64,000 nucleotides of DNA from Nitrospirota bacterium (GCA_963710375.1 CAVPZX010000003.1:320001-384000); one strand, 5' to 3'; positions 8,914 to 18,567 are shown, counted from the first letter of the stretch. Translations and numbers: made by a program. The notes: generated by a model not told the origin, from the sequence alone.

Positions 8914-8951
8914 AACCTATGGGCATTGAGACGGAAAAAGGGAATGGCATA

Positions 8952-10524
8952 GTGCCCCATACGGAAGAAAGTCACCAGAGTACGACAGATCTTATCCTGG
9001 CAAGGCTGCAGGAATACCACGACTTCCCGGCTATGTCAAATACTGTTGATGTTATGAATCGGTTCAAGGCTTCCGAAGATGTCTCAGTTTCCGAATTTGC
9101 CAATATTATTTTGAAGGATTATGGTTTAACGTCAAAGATTTTGAAACTTGTAAACAGCGTCAGCTATGCTCAGTTCGGAGAGGTTACGACTATTTCTCGT
9201 GCAATAGTCCTCATTGGGTTTGAAAACATCAAGAATCTTGCTGTTACACTGATGCTTTTTGATTATTTCCAGAAAAACAGACTCAAATCCCGAGCATGTG
9301 GATACAAAGGTCAAATCCTTATACAGCGCAATCATGGCTCAGAAGGTCTCGCATGAGAAATCTTTAGACAATGAGGAAGAAGCGTTTATCTGTTCGCTTT
9401 TCCACACTTTCGGCAAAATGCTGGTGACCTTTGCCCTGCCGGAGAAAATAGAGGAAATAAAACTTCTCAGCAGTGAAAAAGGTATTTCAGAAAATGAGGC
9501 TGCACTCTCTGTCCTCGGCGAGCGTTATGAAGAGGTGGGCGTTGCAATGGCCAGGGACTGGCATTTTCCGACCATAATCATTAATAGCATGCACAAACTC
9601 CGCGGCATGGAAATTACTACCGGCGCCGACAAACTCGATAAACTCAATGTCGTTGCCTTCTTCTCCAATGAAGTCGCTAATATATTGTCGACAACTACTA
9701 ATAAATATGAGATGGATGAGAAAATCGGAAAACTCGCAAGAACGTTCAGGCCCCACCTGGGTGATCTGGACAGGAGGATGGACAGAATCATCAATGCGAG
9801 TCTTGATGACCTGAATGAGTTTTCAAGAATTTTTAATGTCAATCTTAGCGCGGTCCCTTTTACAAGGCAGTTGCTGGTATGGGCCGGTAAGCCGGAGCAG
9901 GCTGTGCAACCCAAAAACGAGCTGCTCTTCGCTGACTTTTCGACTGAAGAGCTTGAAACTATTGATATTATCCTTGATTCCGAAAAAAGAGACACCCCCG
10001 AAAGTATTTTCACGAAGGGCATTCAGGATATCAATAGTTCGATACTGAGCGATTTCAACATCAACGATGTCGTCAGGATTGTGCTGGAAACCATGTACAG
10101 GGGCATGCAATTGTCGGGGCAGGCAAAGGCCCTGTTCCTGGTAAAGGAGACCAAAGCGCCTATAATGAAGGTCAGATTCGGGTTCGGGAGCCGGGTTGAG
10201 GAACTGAAAAAATGGTTCGAAATTTCACTAGACGACCCCACCGACATCTTCAATATATCTATAGTCAAGGGGCATGACCTTGTAGTGAAGAACATCGAGT
10301 CTCCCGATATTAAAAAGTTGCTGCCCAAATGGTTCAGAAGCAAGGCATTTTCGAGGATCTTTTTTGTCATTTTGCCTATCATAGTTAATAAAAAGCCTTT
10401 GGGGATATTCTATATAGAGGGGGACAGGGAAGACTTTCAGAAAGTTTCCGCCGTGCATTTAAACTACCTGAAAATGTTGCGCGATCAGACGGTCGTGGCT
10501 ATCAGACAGAAACATTGGTACTAA
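8952..10524 (+). pseudogene. HDOD + C-terminal GAF-like protein, frameshifted near 9273-9281
   Basis: ORFs 8919-9356 and 9259-10524 together align end to end with intact paralog 12817-14391; one extra base in AAAAACAGACTCAAAT versus GAGAACAGCTCAAAT. Confidence 0.8.
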
Positions 10525-11013
10525 ATGAAGATCCCCGAACCTAATATGACTTTTGTCTTTATTGCGAAGGAGGAGATACTCCGGAACATTGTCAACACCC
10601 ATGATTTTATCCTGGTCCAGGGCTGGAAAGGTACAGGAAAGACTGTTACCGCGCTTAAAGCCGTCGCCGGGATGGGAGATATATATTATTATAATGGGTC
10701 GGCAGAGGAAATACCGCAACATACCGGCCAACTGAACGTTGTGAAAAACTGCCAGGAGCTGCGCGCCATTCAGCCCGGGAAGCAGTGCATCATCTTCGAT
10801 AATCTGAACCATCTCGACAGTGAAGCGCGCAATATTTTAAAGGATATGATACTGGAAAGGATAAAAGACAGAAAAATACTTGTTATCACACAAGTGGTGC
10901 TCGATGCGCAGGACATCCTGGGGAATATGGATGTTGTTGTTCGCTTCAGGCAGAACACCGCGGAGATGCTGGATACGAAATTGTATAACCTAAATAGTTG
11001 TTGCCGTTTTTAA
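10525..11013 (+). CDS. Small P-loop NTPase (copy 1)
   Basis: Walker A GWKGTGKT, Walker B-like CIIFDN; paralog of 14393-14869. Confidence 0.75.
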   Translation: MKIPEPNMTFVFIAKEEILRNIVNTHDFILVQGWKGTGKTVTALKAVAGMGDIYYYNGSAEEIPQHTGQLNVVKNCQELRAIQPGKQCIIFDNLNHLDSEARNILKDMILERIKDRKILVITQVVLDAQDILGNMDVVVRFRQNTAEMLDTKLYNLNSCCRF

Positions 11014-11022
11014 AATTCGTGC

Positions 11023-11064
11023 ATCTGAGCGCCTGAATGCGCAAGTTATTTATTCGCGAGCCCT
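11023..11064. repeat. Truncated end of family-A miniature element
   Basis: atctgagcgcctgaatgcgcaagttatttattcgcgagccct matches the end of 16574-16755 and, inverted, the start of 57147-57328. Confidence 0.85.
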
Positions 11065-11508
11065 CAATTCCATGTATAGCTTTTTTTTCTCACATGCCCC
11101 TTTCCAGCCGCACCCGTTGCAGGATGATTCATACCATGCCCGAAAGATTGAGGGAAGCATATTCCGGATGTCCGTCCATCTGACAAACTGGCCGGATAAA
11201 AGTCCGAGCAGACGCAAGGCCAGACGGTCCATGGCCAGGATGTCATCCTCAACCTGGGCGCTGTGCATGCACCTGTTAAATTTCAAAGAAGGGCAGTATT
11301 TACAAATGGCATCGGCCCCGTTATGCACCTGAACTATGCCCTCTTCCGCGACACCAATAACGTTCCTCAAGTTTTCGACAAACGCGGCGTCATAGCCTTC
11401 GCCCGAGAAAAAATGAAGACAGATTAGGTGATGGCCCCTTAATGAGCAACTCTCAATCTTTTGGCTGTGGTTCTTCTTAAATGCGCTTTTCAGGCTAATC
11501 AATGACAT
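11050..11508 (-). CDS. DUF1284-like Cys/His-rich protein
   Basis: LRGHHLICL..F.GEGY..FVEN, D.IC..CP, C-terminal CxxCxW..C. Confidence 0.8.
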   Translation of the reverse strand: MSLISLKSAFKKNHSQKIESCSLRGHHLICLHFFSGEGYDAAFVENLRNVIGVAEEGIVQVHNGADAICKYCPSLKFNRCMHSAQVEDDILAMDRLALRLLGLLSGQFVRWTDIRNMLPSIFRAWYESSCNGCGWKGACEKKKLYMELRARE

Positions 11509-11572
11509 TATTAATTATATAACATACCTAGTGCATATATAAACGGTTAGAGCATCTTCGGTAGCGGGTCAG

Positions 11573-11601
11573 TTGACAGAGCCCAATATATCTGTTAGTT
11601 T
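11573..11601 (+). promoter_or_regulatory. Sigma70-type promoter with extended -10, probably giving a leaderless mRNA
   Basis: TTGACA-17 nt-TAGTTT, 5 nt before GTG 11607, no SD. Confidence 0.7.
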
Positions 11602-11606
11602 AACTT

Positions 11607-12800
11607 GTGGACAAGTTGAAGGGAAGAGATATTATCGAAAAGATCAAGGCCGGCTATTCGCTGCCTTCTCTATCAGCCGTTGCACTCAGGCTCGTTGAAA
11701 TAGCATCCAACGAATATGTTTCCCTGAGTGAAATGGCGGACCTTATTGAGAAGGACCCCGGTCTTACGGTCCGTCTGGTCACTATTGCCAACAGCGCATT
11801 TTTCAGGTCTACGGATCCGGTCTCGACTGTGGAGCAATCTGTCATGAGAGTCGGCGTCAACCATTTAAGAATCATGGCTTTATCATTGTCACTGAGAGAT
11901 ACGTTCCCGATGGGCAAACTCGGTCCAATGGATTACGAGAAGTTCTGGCGTTCTTCGCTCTACCAGGCATTAATCGCGAAATCTTTTGCACAAAGGTTGC
12001 AGACATGCAGTCCTGAAGAGGCCTTTGTTGCCGGTCTTGTCCTGGAGATCGGGCTGCTGATATTTGTTGACACCTTCTTAAAGGGACATGTAATTGAAAA
12101 GAATCTGGACCTTCATCCTTTGGAGAAACTCCTGGAATGGGAGGCCATGCATTACAGGACCGATCACAGGGAGATCGGGGCTGCAGCGCTGAGTTATTGG
12201 AAGTTTCCTTCAGTTATTATAGAATGCCAGCATGTCCATAATATAGAATCCAGGGACGAACAGGTACCTCCTCTGGCCCTGATCTGTGAAATGGCGCGTG
12301 AATTCTCCGCGCTAATTTGTGAAGAATCGATGGAGTGGAGCCCGCTTTTCAGCAGGGCTGAAGCTATGTACGGCATTAATCAGGGTTTGCTCACAGATAT
12401 TCTTGTCGCCACATTTGATGAGGTCCAGGAGGTTGCCGATGGACTCAAGGTCAATATGAACAAGGAGAAAGATCTTATCGCTCTCATCGAAAAAGCGAAC
12501 CTTTCTCTGGGCGGTCTTTCGGAAAAGATGCTAAAGCTTCAGGAAACAGCATTAAAACATGGCTTGCCGTCTTTCGAAAGTCTGGGAGATCTCGAAGAAA
12601 AGTCAGCCGTAAGGGACACGTTGCAGGCAGTAGCGCATGAGATAAGGAACCCGCTTCTGGCGGTCAGCGGTTTTGCGAAGAAACTTTCGACAGCCCTCGA
12701 CCCTGCCTCTGACGGCTGGAAATATGTACAGGTAATTGTCGAGGAGTCCAGGAGGCTCGAAAGCGCTCTGGCAAACATGACCTGCTCTAACAAGTGCTGA
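11607..12800 (+). CDS. HDOD protein with C-terminal HisKA-like (DHp) helix pair and no HATPase
   Basis: LPSLS, IEKDPGLTVRL, EEAFVAGL, WKFP; VAHEIRNPL H-box close to the C-terminus. Confidence 0.85.
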   Translation: MDKLKGRDIIEKIKAGYSLPSLSAVALRLVEIASNEYVSLSEMADLIEKDPGLTVRLVTIANSAFFRSTDPVSTVEQSVMRVGVNHLRIMALSLSLRDTFPMGKLGPMDYEKFWRSSLYQALIAKSFAQRLQTCSPEEAFVAGLVLEIGLLIFVDTFLKGHVIEKNLDLHPLEKLLEWEAMHYRTDHREIGAAALSYWKFPSVIIECQHVHNIESRDEQVPPLALICEMAREFSALICEESMEWSPLFSRAEAMYGINQGLLTDILVATFDEVQEVADGLKVNMNKEKDLIALIEKANLSLGGLSEKMLKLQETALKHGLPSFESLGDLEEKSAVRDTLQAVAHEIRNPLLAVSGFAKKLSTALDPASDGWKYVQVIVEESRRLESALANMTCSNKC

Positions 12801-12816
12801 AAAAGGGGATGGCATA

Positions 12817-14391
12817 GTGTCACAAACGCAAGAAAATGGCCAGAGCACAAAAGATCTGATCCTGGCAAGGCTGCAGGAAAACAGTGATTTTCCTGCCATG
12901 TCTAATACCATGAACATGATTAATCAGTTGAAGGCTGCCGAAGACGCCTCTGTTACTGAATTAGCCAATATTGTTTTGAGGGATTATGCATTGACGTCGA
13001 AGATCATAAAAGTTGTAAACAGCGTCAGTTATTCCCAGTTCGGGGAAGTCACTACTATTTCCCGTGCAATCAATCTGCTTGGGTTTGAAAACATCAAGAA
13101 TCTTTGCCTCACTTTAATGCTTTTTGGTCATTTCCGGGAGAACAGCTCAAATGTCGAACATGTAGATACTATGATCAAATCTTTTTACAGCGGATTCCTG
13201 GCCCAGAAGATATGCGGCGAGGTATCCTTTGAGAACAAGGAAGAGGCGTTTATCTGTTCGCTGCTCCACAATTTCGGCAAGATGCTGATATCCTTTGCCT
13301 TGCCTGAAACAATAAAGGAGGTAAAATCTGTAAGCCATGAAAGAGGTATTTCAGAAGATGCGGCTGCCCTTTCGGTCCTCGGCGGGAGATATGAGGAGAT
13401 AGGCATGGCAATAGCCAAGGGATGGAATTTCCCGACCAAGATCATTCGCAGCATGCACAAACTCAGCAGAACGGAAGTCAAAGACTCGTCCGATGAGATC
13501 GATCAGCTCATTAGCATTGCTTCCCTTTCCAATGAAATATCGAACATACTATCGAGCAGTTCGGAAAAGAAGGAGATGGATGAGAGGCTTGGCAAACTTG
13601 CCGACATGTTCAAGACTACTTTCACCGGGTTGAACCGCAAGGTGATAACCGGTGTTATTAATGAAAGTCTTGAAGACCTGAATCAGTTTTCGGCTATTTT
13701 TCATATCAACATGGATGAAGTTCCCTTTAACTGGCAGTTGATGACCTGGTCGGACAAGGTGGTCGAACCGTCAGCAACGGTTGCAGGAGTTCTACACGCG
13801 GACTTTACATCTGAACAACTAAAGTCGATTGATGTTATTGCCGGATCTGAAAAAGAAGATACCCCGGATAGCGTATTCTCAAAGGGCTTGCACGATGTCA
13901 CTTGTTCATTATTGAGCAGTTTCTCGCTGAACGATATAATAAGGATTGTGCTGGAAACTATATACAGAGGCATGCAGCTGTCAGGGGAGGGGAAAACCCT
14001 CTTTTTGGTCAAGGATACAGAGGCCCCTGTCATGAGAATAAGATTCGGGTTAGGGAGCGGGATTGAGGGATTGAAGAGGTGGTTTAATGTTACGTTGGAT
14101 GATTCCGGCGATATTTTTAATAAGGCGATAGTTAAGCAGCATGATCTCGTTATCAAGAGCGTCGAGCCTCCAGCTATTAAAAAATTGTTGCCCGAATGGT
14201 TCAAACATAGGGCATCTGCCGGAATCTTTTTTATTGTTTTACCTATTATAATAAATAATAAACCGATCGGTATGTTTTATGTAGAAGGGAATAAGAAAGA
14301 ATTTCTGAAAGTCTCAGCTGAACATTTAAACTACCTGAAAATGTTGCGCGATCAGACGGTCGTTGCGATCAAACAGAAACGTTGGAGCTAA
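12817..14391 (+). CDS. HDOD + C-terminal GAF-like protein (intact paralog)
   Basis: DFPAMS, LRDYALTSKIIKVVNS, EEAFICSLLHNFGK, WNFP; C-terminal VLPIIINNKPIGMFY GAF-like strand pair. Confidence 0.85.
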   Translation: MSQTQENGQSTKDLILARLQENSDFPAMSNTMNMINQLKAAEDASVTELANIVLRDYALTSKIIKVVNSVSYSQFGEVTTISRAINLLGFENIKNLCLTLMLFGHFRENSSNVEHVDTMIKSFYSGFLAQKICGEVSFENKEEAFICSLLHNFGKMLISFALPETIKEVKSVSHERGISEDAAALSVLGGRYEEIGMAIAKGWNFPTKIIRSMHKLSRTEVKDSSDEIDQLISIASLSNEISNILSSSSEKKEMDERLGKLADMFKTTFTGLNRKVITGVINESLEDLNQFSAIFHINMDEVPFNWQLMTWSDKVVEPSATVAGVLHADFTSEQLKSIDVIAGSEKEDTPDSVFSKGLHDVTCSLLSSFSLNDIIRIVLETIYRGMQLSGEGKTLFLVKDTEAPVMRIRFGLGSGIEGLKRWFNVTLDDSGDIFNKAIVKQHDLVIKSVEPPAIKKLLPEWFKHRASAGIFFIVLPIIINNKPIGMFYVEGNKKEFLKVSAEHLNYLKMLRDQTVVAIKQKRWS

Positions 14392-14392
14392 A

Positions 14393-14869
14393 ATGGAATG
14401 CCCGGCCCCTCAAATGGCTTTTATTGCGAAGGAAGAGATACTCCGGAACATCGTCAGTACACATGCTGTCATACTGATCGAAGGCTGGAAAGGTACAGGG
14501 AAGACTATTACCGCGCTTAAAGCCGTCAACGGCAAGGGAGATATCTACTATTACAACGGTACGGCGGGGGAAATACCGCAGTGTTCCATCCAACCGAACA
14601 TTGTGAAAAACTGTCAGGAACTGCGCGCCATTCCGCCCGGAAAACAGTGCATCATCTTTGATGATCTGAACCGTCTGGACAGCGAAGCACGCAGTATTTT
14701 AAAGGATATGGTGCTGGAAAGGAAGAAAGACAGGAAAATAGTCGTTATCACGCGGGTGGTTCTCGATGCACAGGACATTCTGGAAAATATGGATGTTGTT
14801 GTTCGCTTCAAGCAGAATACCGCAGAGATGCTGCATACGAAACTGTATGAGCTGGACAGCTTTCAGTAA
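14393..14869 (+). CDS. Small P-loop NTPase (copy 2)
   Basis: GWKGTGKT, CIIFDD; ATG 1 nt after the upstream stop. Confidence 0.75.
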   Translation: MECPAPQMAFIAKEEILRNIVSTHAVILIEGWKGTGKTITALKAVNGKGDIYYYNGTAGEIPQCSIQPNIVKNCQELRAIPPGKQCIIFDDLNRLDSEARSILKDMVLERKKDRKIVVITRVVLDAQDILENMDVVVRFKQNTAEMLHTKLYELDSFQ

Positions 14870-14874
14870 CAATG

Positions 14875-15093
14875 CAATTCAGACAGTAGATGATTCTCTT
14901 TCGCTACTCTCCGTTTTGACAGTTCTATGACTCGTTTCGCTACAGTCGCAAAATTCCCTTCGGTCAGTTTCGCTCCTGACTGCCACCCCAAAAGTCTGTG
15001 ACTTTTGGGGACCCCGGACTTTTACGCTCACTCGCCAAGAACTGTTTCCAAAACTCCGCTAATGCTTCAGAGATTCATCTACTGTCTGAATTG
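14875..15093. mobile_element. Miniature inverted-repeat element, family B (with a nested hairpin)
   Basis: Ends CAATTCAGACAGTAGATGA...TCATCTACTGTCTGAATTG; internally homologous to the reverse complement of 42182-42367. Confidence 0.7.
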
Positions 15094-15149
15094 AACTTCA
15101 GTAACGATGTCCTCTTCCTCTGCCTCAATACAGTATAATAAAATAAATT

Positions 15150-16448
15150 ATGCGATATTATCTTGCAAACAATTTTGTGCTCAAACAGCTCGAGACTCCG
15201 GCCCTTTATGATATCAAGGGAGATGAATTGTATGAGCTTGATGAACAGGCCTTTGAATTTCTAAAAAAATGCTCGGAGTCCGAAGGCTGCAGCGGCCATA
15301 GTGCGGACAAAGAATTTCTCGCGTATTGCATTTCAGAAGGGATCTTGTCTGACACGCCTGTTAAGGTCCGCGTCCCGCACGCTGCATTTCGACCTGCTAT
15401 TTCAGCTTTCCCCTCGCTGCGTTATCTCGATCTCCAAATCACCGACCGGTGCAATCTGAGATGCAAGCACTGCTATATCGATAATGCTGAACAAAACGAA
15501 CTTTCACCAGGTTTAATAAGGGAGATCCTGGATGAATTTGAGCTGATGCAGGGTGTGCGCTTATTGATCACGGGAGGAGAGCCAATAGCTCATCGTGATT
15601 TTGACTCTGTTAATGCGCTGCTTCCCGGATATGGATTCAGAAAGATTTTATTTACTAACGGCCTTCTCCTGGACAAAAAGGTGGTGCGAACGCTCAATGT
15701 CGATGAAATACAGTTCAGTGTAGACGGAATGGAGCATGGACATAACGCGCTTAGAGGGGATGGCACCTACAGAAAAGTGATGAAGTCGATCGAGGGTGCG
15801 CAGGCTTTGGGCATAGCGGTTTCTGTGGCAAGCATGGTACACGGCGAGAATGTCGGAGAATTTCCGGCAATGGAAGCGCTTTTTAAAGACATGGGAGTTA
15901 AGGACTGGACTGTTGACGTGCCCTGCATTGCCGGTCACCTTAAACACAATGCGCTCTTTCATGTGCTGCCCGCCGAAGCGGGGCAATACCTGAATTATGG
16001 TTTCGGAGGCGGCCTGCATGGCGGCGGCGACGGGTATGCTTGCGGGCTGCACCTTTTGTCGGTGCTTGCGAACGGTGCAGTTTCCAAATGCGCCTTTTAT
16101 GCCCATTCTCCGCTGGGCAATGTAAGTGAGGGCTTGCGAAAGTGCTGGACACGGCTGAAACCGGTGAAATTGGAAACATTGCAGTGCGCAGGGGTCCACT
16201 GCCAGGTTATCGAAGAGTGCAGGGGGGGGTGCAGATTCCGGGCATCCGTTACCCCGGGTGATTGCTTACCAGCTGCTCTATCTCAGGACATACAAAGTGA
16301 AGCGGCGCAAAACAGGAGAGATATTTACAAATGTTTTGCCTATGGTATAATTAATCCATCGGGGCTTGAAGCCCTGCACGAAGGCCCCTCAAAAGAGTCT
16401 GTTATTTTTCCGGGCTGGAATGAACTCCCGAGAAGAGGAGGTGTTTGA
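15150..16448 (+). CDS. Radical SAM/SPASM protein, putative peptide maturase with N-terminal RRE/PqqD-like domain
   Basis: CNLRCKHC, ITGGEP, FTNG, SVDG; C-terminal C-x15-C and CAGVHC-x5-CRGGC cysteines; ~85-aa N-terminal extension (LYDIKGDELYELDEQAFEFL). Confidence 0.85.
   Translation: MRYYLANNFVLKQLETPALYDIKGDELYELDEQAFEFLKKCSESEGCSGHSADKEFLAYCISEGILSDTPVKVRVPHAAFRPAISAFPSLRYLDLQITDRCNLRCKHCYIDNAEQNELSPGLIREILDEFELMQGVRLLITGGEPIAHRDFDSVNALLPGYGFRKILFTNGLLLDKKVVRTLNVDEIQFSVDGMEHGHNALRGDGTYRKVMKSIEGAQALGIAVSVASMVHGENVGEFPAMEALFKDMGVKDWTVDVPCIAGHLKHNALFHVLPAEAGQYLNYGFGGGLHGGGDGYACGLHLLSVLANGAVSKCAFYAHSPLGNVSEGLRKCWTRLKPVKLETLQCAGVHCQVIEECRGGCRFRASVTPGDCLPAALSQDIQSEAAQNRRDIYKCFAYGIINPSGLEALHEGPSKESVIFPGWNELPRRGGV
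16324..16351 (+). promoter_or_regulatory. Candidate internal promoter for the downstream peptide ORF
   Basis: TTTACA-16 nt-TATAAT with TGn extension (TGGTATAAT). Confidence 0.5.
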
Positions 16449-16449
16449 T

Positions 16450-16512
16450 ATGGTGATCAAGAAGATCGCAAAAAAAACAGCAACCACGTGTAAGTGCAAG
16501 GGCTCCTGTTAA
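16450..16512 (+). CDS. Putative RiPP precursor peptide MVIKKIAKKTATTCKCKGSC (20 aa)
   Basis: SD AGGAGGTG at 16436-16443, 6 nt before ATG; 1 nt after the rSAM stop; Lys-rich N-terminus and C-terminal CxCxxxC. Confidence 0.75.
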   Translation: MVIKKIAKKTATTCKCKGSC

Positions 16513-16573
16513 AGGCTTAAAAGAGTTTATACGAGTGACCCTGAGGGTTATCGGTCGGGGGGCGGGTGTATTT

Positions 16574-16755
16574 AGGGCTCGCGAATAAATAACTTGCACA
16601 TTGATGCATCTCAGATTCAGGCCATCTTTGTCCGATCCTCGGTCGCAAAATTCTCAACGTAGCTATGCTACGCCTGCGGTTTTGCTCAGTCGGATCAGCC
16701 AAATCTGACACAAATCTGAGCGCCTGAATGCACAAGTAATTTATTCGCGAGCCCT
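16574..16755. mobile_element. Miniature inverted-repeat element, family A (182 bp)
   Basis: 23-bp terminal IRs AGGGCTCGCGAATAAATAACTTG (one mismatch); internal palindrome CGTAGCTATGCTACG; second full copy inverted at 57147-57328. Confidence 0.85.
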
Positions 16756-16818
16756 CAGCCCCCCATTTATTTTGTCAAATCCTTTATATTTGTCATATAC
16801 CTGTGCGATAATAAAAAA

Positions 16819-18567
16819 ATGTACAAGATGAAACTATATTTTGCGGTGCTTGCAGTATCGGTCCTCTGCATCTTATCATGCGCTCCCCTGCAACAGCAGG
16901 CGAGCTCGGTTAAAGAGCCTCCTGCAGAAAAATTGCAGCCTGGTGCTGAGAAAGGATATTTGGAATACATGCTCGGCTATGAGGCTGAAATTGACGGCAA
17001 TTGGGAGGCTGCCCTGGAACATTATAGCGCAGCCTACAAACTCGACCCTTCGGCAGTCTACTTAAAGACGCAGATAGGCTCCATGATGGTGAAGCTCGGA
17101 AGATATGCGGAGGCAACCGCGAAGCTGGAGGAGGTAGTGAAGGCAAGCCCCGATTATGTTCCAGCCCTTATGCTGCTGGGTGACTTGTATAACTCTCAGA
17201 AGAAGATCGATGAAGCTATAGATATTTATGAAAAGGTGATAAAAATATCTCCGGACAAAAACGATGCGGCTCTGTTCCTGGGAGTCCTTTACCTGTCTAA
17301 AGGAGAGCCCAAAAAGGCTGAACTCATTCTTGATGAAATCATTAAAAGAGACGCTGATAATGTCATGGCACTATACTATCTCGGCACGATCAGTCTTGAG
17401 AGGAAGGATTTTAAAAAATCTGATACGTTGTTTAAAAAAGTAATAGAGCTTCGGCCGACCTTTGACGCAGCTTATGTGAGCCTTGGCCTTTCCAGTGAAA
17501 TAAGGAACGATACGAAGTCTGCCGAAGAATACTACAATAAAGCGCTCGAAGTTAATCCCAATAATCCTTTCGCAAGCGAGAGGCTTACTCAGCTTTACGT
17601 GACCGAGAAATCATATGATAAGGCTATTAAGGAACTCGATCATCTGCTGGAACAGGCTCCAACAAATGTGGATATTCACCAACAGCTCGGTCTCCTCTAT
17701 CTTCAGGATAAACAATATGAGCAGGCCCTCTCCGAGTTCAGGATTGTCCTTGCGGCCAGGCCGCTTGATATAACTCTCCGATATTATGTTGTGGTGACAC
17801 TCGATGAAATGAACAAGCTCGATGAGGCAATTGTCGAACTGAAGAAAATTCTCGATATTGATCCCAAGAACTTCAATGCGTTCATGACGCTCGGAGCTAT
17901 TTATTCAAAGCAGAACAATCACCCCGAGGCGATAAAGATCTACGAGGAAGTTCTCAGTTTTGAAAAGAATAAGCCTGAAGTCTATGTTTACCTCGGCGCT
18001 ACCTATGTGGAGATGAAAGAATATGCGAAGGCGGAGAGAATTTTTCAGGATGCCCTCAAGCTCTTTCCCGATAACGCTGACTTGCTTTTCAATATGGCCA
18101 TACTCTTTGAAAAAACCGGAAGGTTCGATGATATGGTGACAGCGCTGAAGCGTACGATCGAGCTGGACCCTAAGAACGCGGAGGCATTGAATTACCTGGG
18201 TTACAGTTATGCCGATAAGGGAATAAAGCTTAAAGAGGCATTGTCGCTTGTACAGCGGGCCATTGAGCTGAAACCTGACAGCGGCTATATCGTGGACAGC
18301 CTTGGATGGGTATATTTCAAGATGGGACGGCTGGAAGAGGCACTGCAGACTCTGAAGAAGGCTGTAAATCTTGTGAAGGATGATCCTGTGCTGAATGAGC
18401 ATGTTGGCGATGTCTATGCGGCAATGGGCAAGTATGCTGATGCGCTCAATGCCTGGAATACGTCGCTCCGGTTCGAGTCCAAAGAGGAGGGCTTAAAAGA
18501 GCGCGTGGAGGCGAAAATAAGAAAATTGCAAAACAAAAAAAATCAATCGGAGAAACCAAAAGAATGA
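16819..18567 (+). CDS. TPR-repeat lipoprotein
   Basis: Lipobox-like ILSC; multiple TPRs; C-terminal ALNYLGYSYAD...DSLGWVYFK; typical position upstream of ispE. Confidence 0.9.
   Translation: MYKMKLYFAVLAVSVLCILSCAPLQQQASSVKEPPAEKLQPGAEKGYLEYMLGYEAEIDGNWEAALEHYSAAYKLDPSAVYLKTQIGSMMVKLGRYAEATAKLEEVVKASPDYVPALMLLGDLYNSQKKIDEAIDIYEKVIKISPDKNDAALFLGVLYLSKGEPKKAELILDEIIKRDADNVMALYYLGTISLERKDFKKSDTLFKKVIELRPTFDAAYVSLGLSSEIRNDTKSAEEYYNKALEVNPNNPFASERLTQLYVTEKSYDKAIKELDHLLEQAPTNVDIHQQLGLLYLQDKQYEQALSEFRIVLAARPLDITLRYYVVVTLDEMNKLDEAIVELKKILDIDPKNFNAFMTLGAIYSKQNNHPEAIKIYEEVLSFEKNKPEVYVYLGATYVEMKEYAKAERIFQDALKLFPDNADLLFNMAILFEKTGRFDDMVTALKRTIELDPKNAEALNYLGYSYADKGIKLKEALSLVQRAIELKPDSGYIVDSLGWVYFKMGRLEEALQTLKKAVNLVKDDPVLNEHVGDVYAAMGKYADALNAWNTSLRFESKEEGLKERVEAKIRKLQNKKNQSEKPKE

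Follow-up and report, generated by a model that had tools for sequence, protein, structure and literature searches.

A 20-codon open reading frame begins one base beyond the stop codon of a radical SAM/SPASM gene in a Nitrospirota bacterium (GCA_963710375.1), which raises the question of whether so short a frame is a gene and, if so, whether the adjacent enzyme modifies its product, and to what end. The window analyzed here is a stretch of 64,000 nucleotides (CAVPZX010000003.1:320001-384000). A first-pass annotation had proposed a minimal enzyme-peptide pair related to ranthipeptides and sactipeptides; the frame, the one-base gap and a Shine-Dalgarno sequence 6 nt before the start codon were all found where it had placed them (Table 1).

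Table 1. Features of the enzyme-peptide locus, in positions of the window
Feature	Position	Strand	Basis or detail
Radical SAM/SPASM enzyme ORF, 432 aa	15150..16448	+	PF04055, predicted model; stop TGA 16446-16448
Predicted RRE (residues about 1-67) and linker to TIM barrel	15150..15404	+	Model topology
SPASM domain	16041..16334	+	Seven invariant cysteines: C298, C314, C346, C351, C357, C361, C395
Likely sigma-70 promoter of the peptide gene	16324..16351	+	TTTACA-16-TG.TATAAT, inside the last conserved codons of the enzyme
5' hairpin, C(NNGAA)G loop	16360..16376	+	Conserved ahead of the peptide in bacteria
Shine-Dalgarno sequence	16436..16443	+	AGGAGGTG, 6 nt before the peptide ATG
20-aa precursor peptide gene	16450..16512	+	MVIKKIAKKTATTCKCKGSC-stop; ATG at 16450, one base beyond the enzyme stop; basic leader and core C14-K15-C16-x-x-S19-C20
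Terminator-like hairpin	16557..16773	+	Fold; arms 16557-16563 and 16758-16764, then ATTTATTTT
MITE-like repeat, 182 bp	16574..16755		34-nt inverted ends; 27 near-full copies in the source genome

The 20-codon frame is, with near certainty, a real gene. A conserved small frame beside enzyme homologs had been set beforehand as the check, and 25 of 30 enzyme loci from relatives carry a matching peptide directly downstream, while the genomes of the other five hold it elsewhere. A larger set was selected by the enzyme and comprised 164 loci, including 20 taken because they had no adjacent match to the strict peptide pattern; 109 of the 164 hold the 20-codon peptide. The cysteines of the 108 distinct genes in this set were demanded by the search pattern. 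Two residues that the pattern did not demand were also conserved, namely Lys15 in all 108 and residue 19, which is Ser in 105 and Thr in 3. An SD-like word precedes 108/108 of these genes under a loose pattern used without a control. Among 8 genus-level peptide genes, pS was 0.54 versus a pN of 0.054, as expected under purifying selection. The length is fixed at 20 aa (19 in three archaeal loci), and the leader follows the consensus M-x-I-x-K-[VI]-x-[KR]. The proposed core TTCKCKGSC proved too broad: its cysteines are conserved, but the conserved part is C-K-C-x-x-[S/T]-C-stop, with positions 17 and 18 variable and T/L/I/M, K and S/T ahead of the three cysteines. Neither a hydrophobic stretch nor a Sec signal peptide was found in the 20 residues. 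Short-read contigs of four runs from two studies span the gene and are identical to the window. The 1-nt gap arises because the enzyme of this lineage runs about 30 unconserved residues beyond the usual family end, and it is incidental to the system.

The first-pass annotation needs correcting on one more point: the peptide is often encoded far from the enzyme and is probably transcribed from its own promoter. The element in the window has 11/12 consensus matches. Of 127 distinct loci that share this gene order, 68 have a TATAAT ahead of the peptide gene (6.6 expected), mostly 55-72 nt before its start and in 66 cases with the TG extension. Protein conservation at the enzyme end could be the source of this excess. 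However, the Ile-Ile ending is mostly missing from enzymes that have no peptide gene behind them, and in one locus (L024) the element is retained at a place beyond the reading frame. The C(NNGAA)G hairpin stands before 67 of 220 peptide genes against 1.4 expected, with 9 in a downstream control and none before 14 archaeal genes; when sites ahead of the peptide were chosen by the loop alone, 66 of 76 had a stem, with varied base pairs. Across the source genome the hairpin was not enriched (a stem flanks 92 of 1379 heptamers, much as in controls) and no regulon was found, and Rfam gave no match within 14800-17000. A look-alike frame found there through the hairpin (C9:63647) was rejected because it overlaps the end of a QueE-like gene on the opposite strand.

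The loop of the terminator-like hairpin downstream of the peptide is interrupted by the MITE-like repeat; three close relatives have the hairpin and no insert at this site, and we regard the repeat as incidental to the system. A second repeat (219 bp, 25-nt inverted ends, 5 near-full copies in the source genome) lies just 5' of the enzyme at 14875-15093. Further upstream, 8919-14869 is a duplicated block in which an HDOD/GAF protein and a small P-loop protein are encoded at both 8919-11013 and 12817-14869; the two copies flank a DUF1284 gene and an HDOD-HisKA gene, and the first HDOD gene of the 8919-11013 copy is split in two frames. At 15134-15152, a TATAAT ends 11 nt before the enzyme ATG and no SD is visible; the enzyme message may be near-leaderless.

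The enzyme has the features of an RRE-dependent radical SAM/SPASM maturase of RiPPs: a CxxxCxxC domain, a SPASM cysteine set, a predicted RRE and a co-conserved short precursor gene. Its sole Pfam match is PF04055 (63.9 bits against a cutoff of 29.5), and the CxxxCxxC motif reported from the first reading is present at C101/C105/C108 and invariant in 118/118 family members. The SPASM cysteines that reading described (C298-x15-C314, then C346-x4-C351-x5-C357-x3-C361) are also present; it missed a seventh, C395, and the spacing it called atypical is lineage-specific, given that this position is CxC, Cx2C or Cx4C over the family. All seven are invariant in an alignment of 27 diverse members, and PF13186 matches the family weakly (8 of 118 members). 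By order and spacing, C298/C314/C361 correspond to the AC1 ligands of CteB (C344/C362/C413) and C346/C351/C357/C395 to its AC2 ligands (C400/C403/C409/C432), as these are given in the available part of PMC10177961. We therefore predict from this pattern a 3+4 ligation of two auxiliary Fe-S clusters, and the near-invariant His290 might serve as fourth ligand at the open site of AC1. The same source assigns the iron bound by the substrate selenocysteine of Tte1186 to AC1, so the CteB-like pattern points to cysteine chemistry, albeit to no single reaction.

The N-terminus is predicted to form an RRE, as the first-pass annotation had suspected. Its model contains strands at residues 9-13, 17-21 and 26-29 and helices at 32-41 and 54-62, with a pLDDT of 86-94 (mean over the enzyme, 84.1), and three strands followed by helices are the RRE layout. 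The enzyme model aligned with SuiB (Z 20.7, rmsd 4.3, 356 aligned) over residues 3-401 and with SkfB (Z 20.4, rmsd 5.1, 325 aligned) over residues 8-366; these ranges, which give the ends of the alignments only, take in the predicted RRE. CteB (Z 19.6) and anSME (Z 19.4) follow closely, and by these model comparisons the four are near ties that single out no reaction. As a lead only, residues 1-85 resemble PqqD-bearing clusters (score 0.90; 25% and 11% of cluster members), and Pfam PqqD matched 0 of 118 family members. Residues about 402-432 are a lineage-specific tail that is not conserved, with pLDDT below 50 for 411-432.

No curated family whose cutoff was compared claims the enzyme. Among the best 25 of 70 matching NCBIfam models, scores reach at most 82.7 bits, all far under the cutoffs. 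The expectation that it lies outside the Ahb/NirJ families was borne out by AhbC (82.7 bits, cutoff 650), NirJ (79.5, cutoff 515) and AhbD (66.6, cutoff 500). The StsB sactisynthase model gave 56.7 bits (cutoff 625), and an archaeal family member scored below the sactisynthase cutoffs of AlbA (81.3 versus 850) and GggB (56.9 versus 650). The best PDB sequence match is SkfB (E 8e-23). Among its close homologs are proteins named from Dissulfurispiraceae, such as that of Dissulfurispira thermophila (WP_203471582.1), and from other Nitrospirota, and the source genome most likely belongs to this group. The family tree was built rapidly and leaves 21 of its 64 inner branches open, and it supports no direction of transfer and no independent fusion. 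Two bases of the window, 15431 and 15914, disagree with all four short-read runs, through a strain difference or an assembly error; the first change would turn Asp94 into the family-consensus Glu, and the second is silent.

The reading as a minimal pair had to be given up, because a third, cysteine-rich protein accompanies the enzyme and is fused to it in some lineages. In a sample of 301 Nitrospirota genomes searched with the strict pattern C-K-C-K-[G/S]-S-C-stop, which gave one match per positive genome, we found the enzyme in 128, the peptide pattern in 113, the partner in 120, all three in 105 and none of them in 170. The enzyme is present in 112 of the 113 genomes with the strict pattern and in 117 of the 120 with the partner, and when variant or contig-cut peptides are included, 125 of the 128 enzyme-bearing genomes have the peptide. 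The 16 enzyme genomes outside the strict pattern comprise 13 with a variant or contig-cut peptide, two in which none was found and one unscreened. As exceptions, one genome has peptide and partner and no enzyme match (G166), and in two with the enzyme neither peptide nor partner was found (G197 and G205). A reversed control pattern gave no match in the 301 genomes. These tallies overstate significance, because kin genomes do not count as independent. The order of genes is shuffled, with the peptide downstream of, upstream of or unlinked to the enzyme, yet the set persists; since the peptide gene is kept through repeated relocation, linkage alone does not explain the co-occurrence. In eight loci of one genus, the peptide stays ahead of a TPR-ispE-prs-rplY cluster and the enzyme and partner have relocated.

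The system extends beyond this phylum. A scan of 19 of the 64 parts of a species collection gave 119 pattern matches, 113 of them with the leader (two of these cut by record ends); the remaining six, which had no leader, were judged chance. The matches include Desulfomonilaceae, Desulfarculaceae, Syntrophaceae, Desulfobacterales and Archaeoglobaceae, and Thermodesulfovibrio records also hold peptides. Enzyme searches in two further phyla, those of a Desulfobacteraceae record and of an Archaeoglobus record, were positive for 35 of 301 and 16 of 301 genomes, respectively; searches of several whole Nitrospirota families did not find the enzyme (0/57, 0/27 and 0/20). A frequent order in Desulfobacterota and archaea is peptide, small cysteine-rich partner, enzyme. 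Desulfobacterota loci carry the peptide in 27 of 30 and the partner in 29 of 30, and in 15 of 16 archaeal loci the peptide and a half-size partner flank the enzyme.

The partner has about 110 aa and seven conserved cysteines. It appears to be an internal repeat of a three-cysteine module, a reading we adopt because a single-module form of roughly 58 aa exists in archaea and one bacterial clade. In 18 loci it is fused to the N-terminus of the enzyme. No Pfam or NCBIfam family was found for it, with only unnamed look-alikes matched, and its model (mean pLDDT 81.8) gave a best Z of 4.6 (rmsd 4.2, 83 aligned) among 48,161 chains, which amounts to no match and is not proof of a new fold. A Desulfoferula mesophila record holds the partner. 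In the source genome, the partner gene lies on another contig (C2:781764-782078), after a CutA-like gene and far from the enzyme, where it is split by a frameshift; all three runs covering the site lack one base there, and the frameshift is probably an assembly error. A protein of roughly 115 aa with the motif D-L-x-T-H-A-C-Y...G-H-E-E-I recurs near the system in five loci, from Desulfarculaceae and some others, and is a possible fourth component. A second, different radical SAM gene occurs near the system in four loci.

Clustering of the neighbours of 254 loci revealed no conserved protease or exporter near the ordinary peptide, in agreement with the first reading, and the product is therefore likely intracellular. 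The neighbours, named from sequence and not by a domain scan, are lineage-bound only: TPR-ispE in 47 loci, ferritin-like in 40, 2-oxoacid oxidoreductase in 29, SOD-like in 18 and nitroreductase in 15. A redox-stress role is possible from these neighbours, although it rests on one clade. The more direct lead to function comes from sister peptides in which position 17 is His (C-K-C-H-x-S-C-stop). This pattern occurs in 27 of 221 genomes of a class and 5 of 61 genomes of a second order; three matches were dropped as chance, and five more loci, with a short locus or a leader mismatch, are left out of the count of 32. The sisters keep the full leader and an SD, and no enzyme adjoins them. Motifs of YHS, heavy-metal-binding or P1B-ATPase proteins lie within 1.5 kb of 15 of the 32 His-type loci compared with 3 of 174 others, and the count rises to 24 of 32 when Met-rich proteins are included, although these islands are related to one another and not independent. 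Pfam searches of 81 of 140 neighbours confirmed YHS, HMBD, E1-E2 ATPase, DUF4396 and DUF5676 domains and one MerR. We tentatively read these as copper islands rather than islands for another metal. Most His-sister genomes hold the enzyme (7 of 9 in a further set); two genomes, 93% and 91% complete, have the sisters and no enzyme match. Peptides of the Lys type, to which that of the window belongs, have no metal genes among their neighbours, and no His sister was found in the source genome. A metal role for the window peptide would thus be an extension by homology. Directly behind the His-type peptide there is usually a Met/Gly/Gln-rich protein that looks exported and matches nothing in Pfam (nine loci), and in one locus (L132) a Lys-type and a His-type peptide gene stand in tandem ahead of partner and enzyme.

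Overall, we propose, as a reading whose whole we hold tentatively, that the peptide is the substrate of the adjacent RRE-radical SAM/SPASM enzyme and that its C-K-C-x-x-S-C core is cross-linked or modified in another way to yield a small intracellular, probably metal-binding peptide. The parts differ in strength: that the peptide is the substrate of this enzyme is highly probable; that the modification involves cysteine is likely; metal handling as its role is an even matter; and a thioether in particular falls slightly short of that. The peptide would be made from its own short transcript, and its alternating leader (I3-x-K5-V6) would dock as a strand on the RRE. A core cysteine thiolate would bind auxiliary cluster 1 at its open iron, as shown for PapB and Tte1186, and the adenosyl radical would abstract hydrogen from an invariant non-cysteine residue, most likely Ser/Thr19 (else Lys15), after which a C-S thioether ring would close. 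A soft metal such as Cu(I) could then find its ligands in the thioether and the thiols left over, joined in the sisters by His17. The partner, with its one or two three-cysteine modules, would hold a metal or cluster and serve the enzyme as a cofactor domain.

This mechanism most likely resembles that of ranthipeptide and sactipeptide synthases, acting here on a very short substrate. With the SCIFF/ranthipeptide pairs CteA-CteB and Tte1186a-Tte1186 and with the freyrasin pair PapA-PapB, the system shares the RRE-rSAM-SPASM layout, the 3+4 pattern of seven cysteines and a Cys-rich peptide with a basic leader; it is likewise single-copy and near-universal in an anaerobic clade. SCIFF precursors are defined by six cysteines in about 45 residues. 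Unlike these systems, the precursor here has 20 aa, three cysteines with one at the C-terminus, a dedicated third protein and a spread over Nitrospirota, Desulfobacterota and archaea, and the enzyme shares 22% identity with CteB over the structural match. The Cys-to-Thr link of Tte1186a (PMC10177961, available part) recalls the invariant Ser/Thr19, although Ser in place of Thr in 105 of 108 genes leaves no gamma-carbon. Among sactipeptide maturases (SkfB, AlbA and the streptococcal GggB, QMP and KGR types), SkfB aligns from the N-terminal domain onward, whereas scores stay far below curated cutoffs and no protease, exporter or Rgg regulator is conserved near the system. Small sactionine rings are known, even with one intervening residue or as a thiomorpholine, according to the accessible text of PMC13361665.

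The alternative that survives best, though we consider it unlikely, is that the core cysteines are oxidized to thiooxazole-type heterocycles, as by SbtM, with the partner as an obligate helper, which would make the system an oxygen-independent counterpart of the bufferin copper chelators. The location of the His sisters in heavy-metal export islands may keep such cysteine chemistry other than thioether formation open, and three invariant peptide cysteines and a required-looking partner would fit it. SbtM offers a precedent, a radical SAM/SPASM enzyme acting on a peptide cysteine in anaerobic bacteria: it makes thiooxazoles with a loss of 4 Da, the thiol stays reactive, and binding of the cysteine has been proposed to occur at an open auxiliary cluster (PMC9204691, available part). 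However, the SbtM model (TIGR04082) gives the enzyme 49.7 bits against a cutoff of 350, SbtM acts at Gly-Cys and no core cysteine here is preceded by a conserved glycine, the peptides seen here have no selenocysteine codon, and the invariance of Ser/Thr19 is left unexplained. According to the available part of PMC11626156, bufferins bind Cu(I) and employ 5-thiooxazoles, and they depend on a partner protein. With them and the methanobactins, the system has in common a cysteine-based peptide, an enzyme with a partner protein and a copper-related setting, the last inferred here from the sister loci only. Their maturases are MNIO (DUF692) proteins, while the linked enzyme here is of the radical SAM superfamily, the peptide lacks a Sec signal and the partner has no known family or fold.

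A less probable alternative is that Lys15 or Ser/Thr19 is modified with no bond to sulfur, by epimerization, serine oxidation or a C-C, C-O or C-N link, and that the cysteines only anchor the peptide at the cluster or later bind metal. Both residues are conserved as strongly as the cysteines, the top structural match is SuiB, and streptococcal RRE-rSAM enzymes make not only thioethers but also Lys-Trp, ether and amide-N links (PMC13361665, accessible text). On the other hand, the three-cysteine AC1 pattern is that of cysteine-binding enzymes, and a SuiB-like bond would need an aromatic residue, of which the core has none. It is more doubtful still that the peptide is no substrate and stays unmodified, carrying a metal or cluster or docking on the RRE as a regulator, with the enzyme acting on the partner or another target. 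The gene's own promoter and terminator, its frequent lack of linkage, the extra copies in metal islands, the His sisters in two genomes with no enzyme match and the want of a conserved protease or exporter would suit such a role. Yet the fusion of partner to enzyme suits a domain better than a substrate, the sisters keep the full leader though no enzyme adjoins, and the fixed length fits an active site. Finally, there is next to no probability that the frame is due to chance and the enzyme a non-peptide SPASM type like Ahb/NirJ: the peptide has no Pfam or NCBIfam match at E 0.1 and its exact sequence is absent among about 15 billion called proteins, but this reading is refuted by conservation of the frame from Nitrospirota to archaea, its SD, purifying selection, the empty reversed-pattern control and the low AhbC, NirJ and AhbD scores (66-83 bits against cutoffs of 500-650).

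With the peptide as the enzyme's substrate, the system is, judged by its sequences, an undescribed three-part RRE-radical SAM system outside SCIFF, the modelled sactisynthases, SbtM and Ahb/NirJ. Our literature search, which covered titles and abstract beginnings, found no paper describing it; the main text and supplement of PMC12710340 and the searchable supplements of PMC7470986 gave no match for its taxa, although large data tables there could still list the enzyme. As for clade-wide RiPPs with no exporters, such as SCIFF, we know of none with a settled function. A further, more speculative and on balance doubtful extension is an oxygen-independent route to a soft-metal (copper or other) chelator in strict anaerobes of two domains, in which the radical SAM enzyme, together with the partner and its undescribed fold, would build a new Cys-derived ligand on a 20-residue peptide, with a housekeeping copy and His-tuned metal-island copies under the control of an undescribed 5' RNA hairpin.

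Gene callers have missed this putative three-gene system of peptide modification. Some anaerobic Nitrospirota families carry it almost universally, and it is also found in Desulfobacterota and archaea. The partner, which has no family or structural match, may be a new Fe-S or metal module. A substrate of 20 residues is short enough for chemical synthesis, and its chemistry is accessible to mass spectrometry. Moreover, the His-bearing sisters give a direct and testable lead to function, namely metal buffering.
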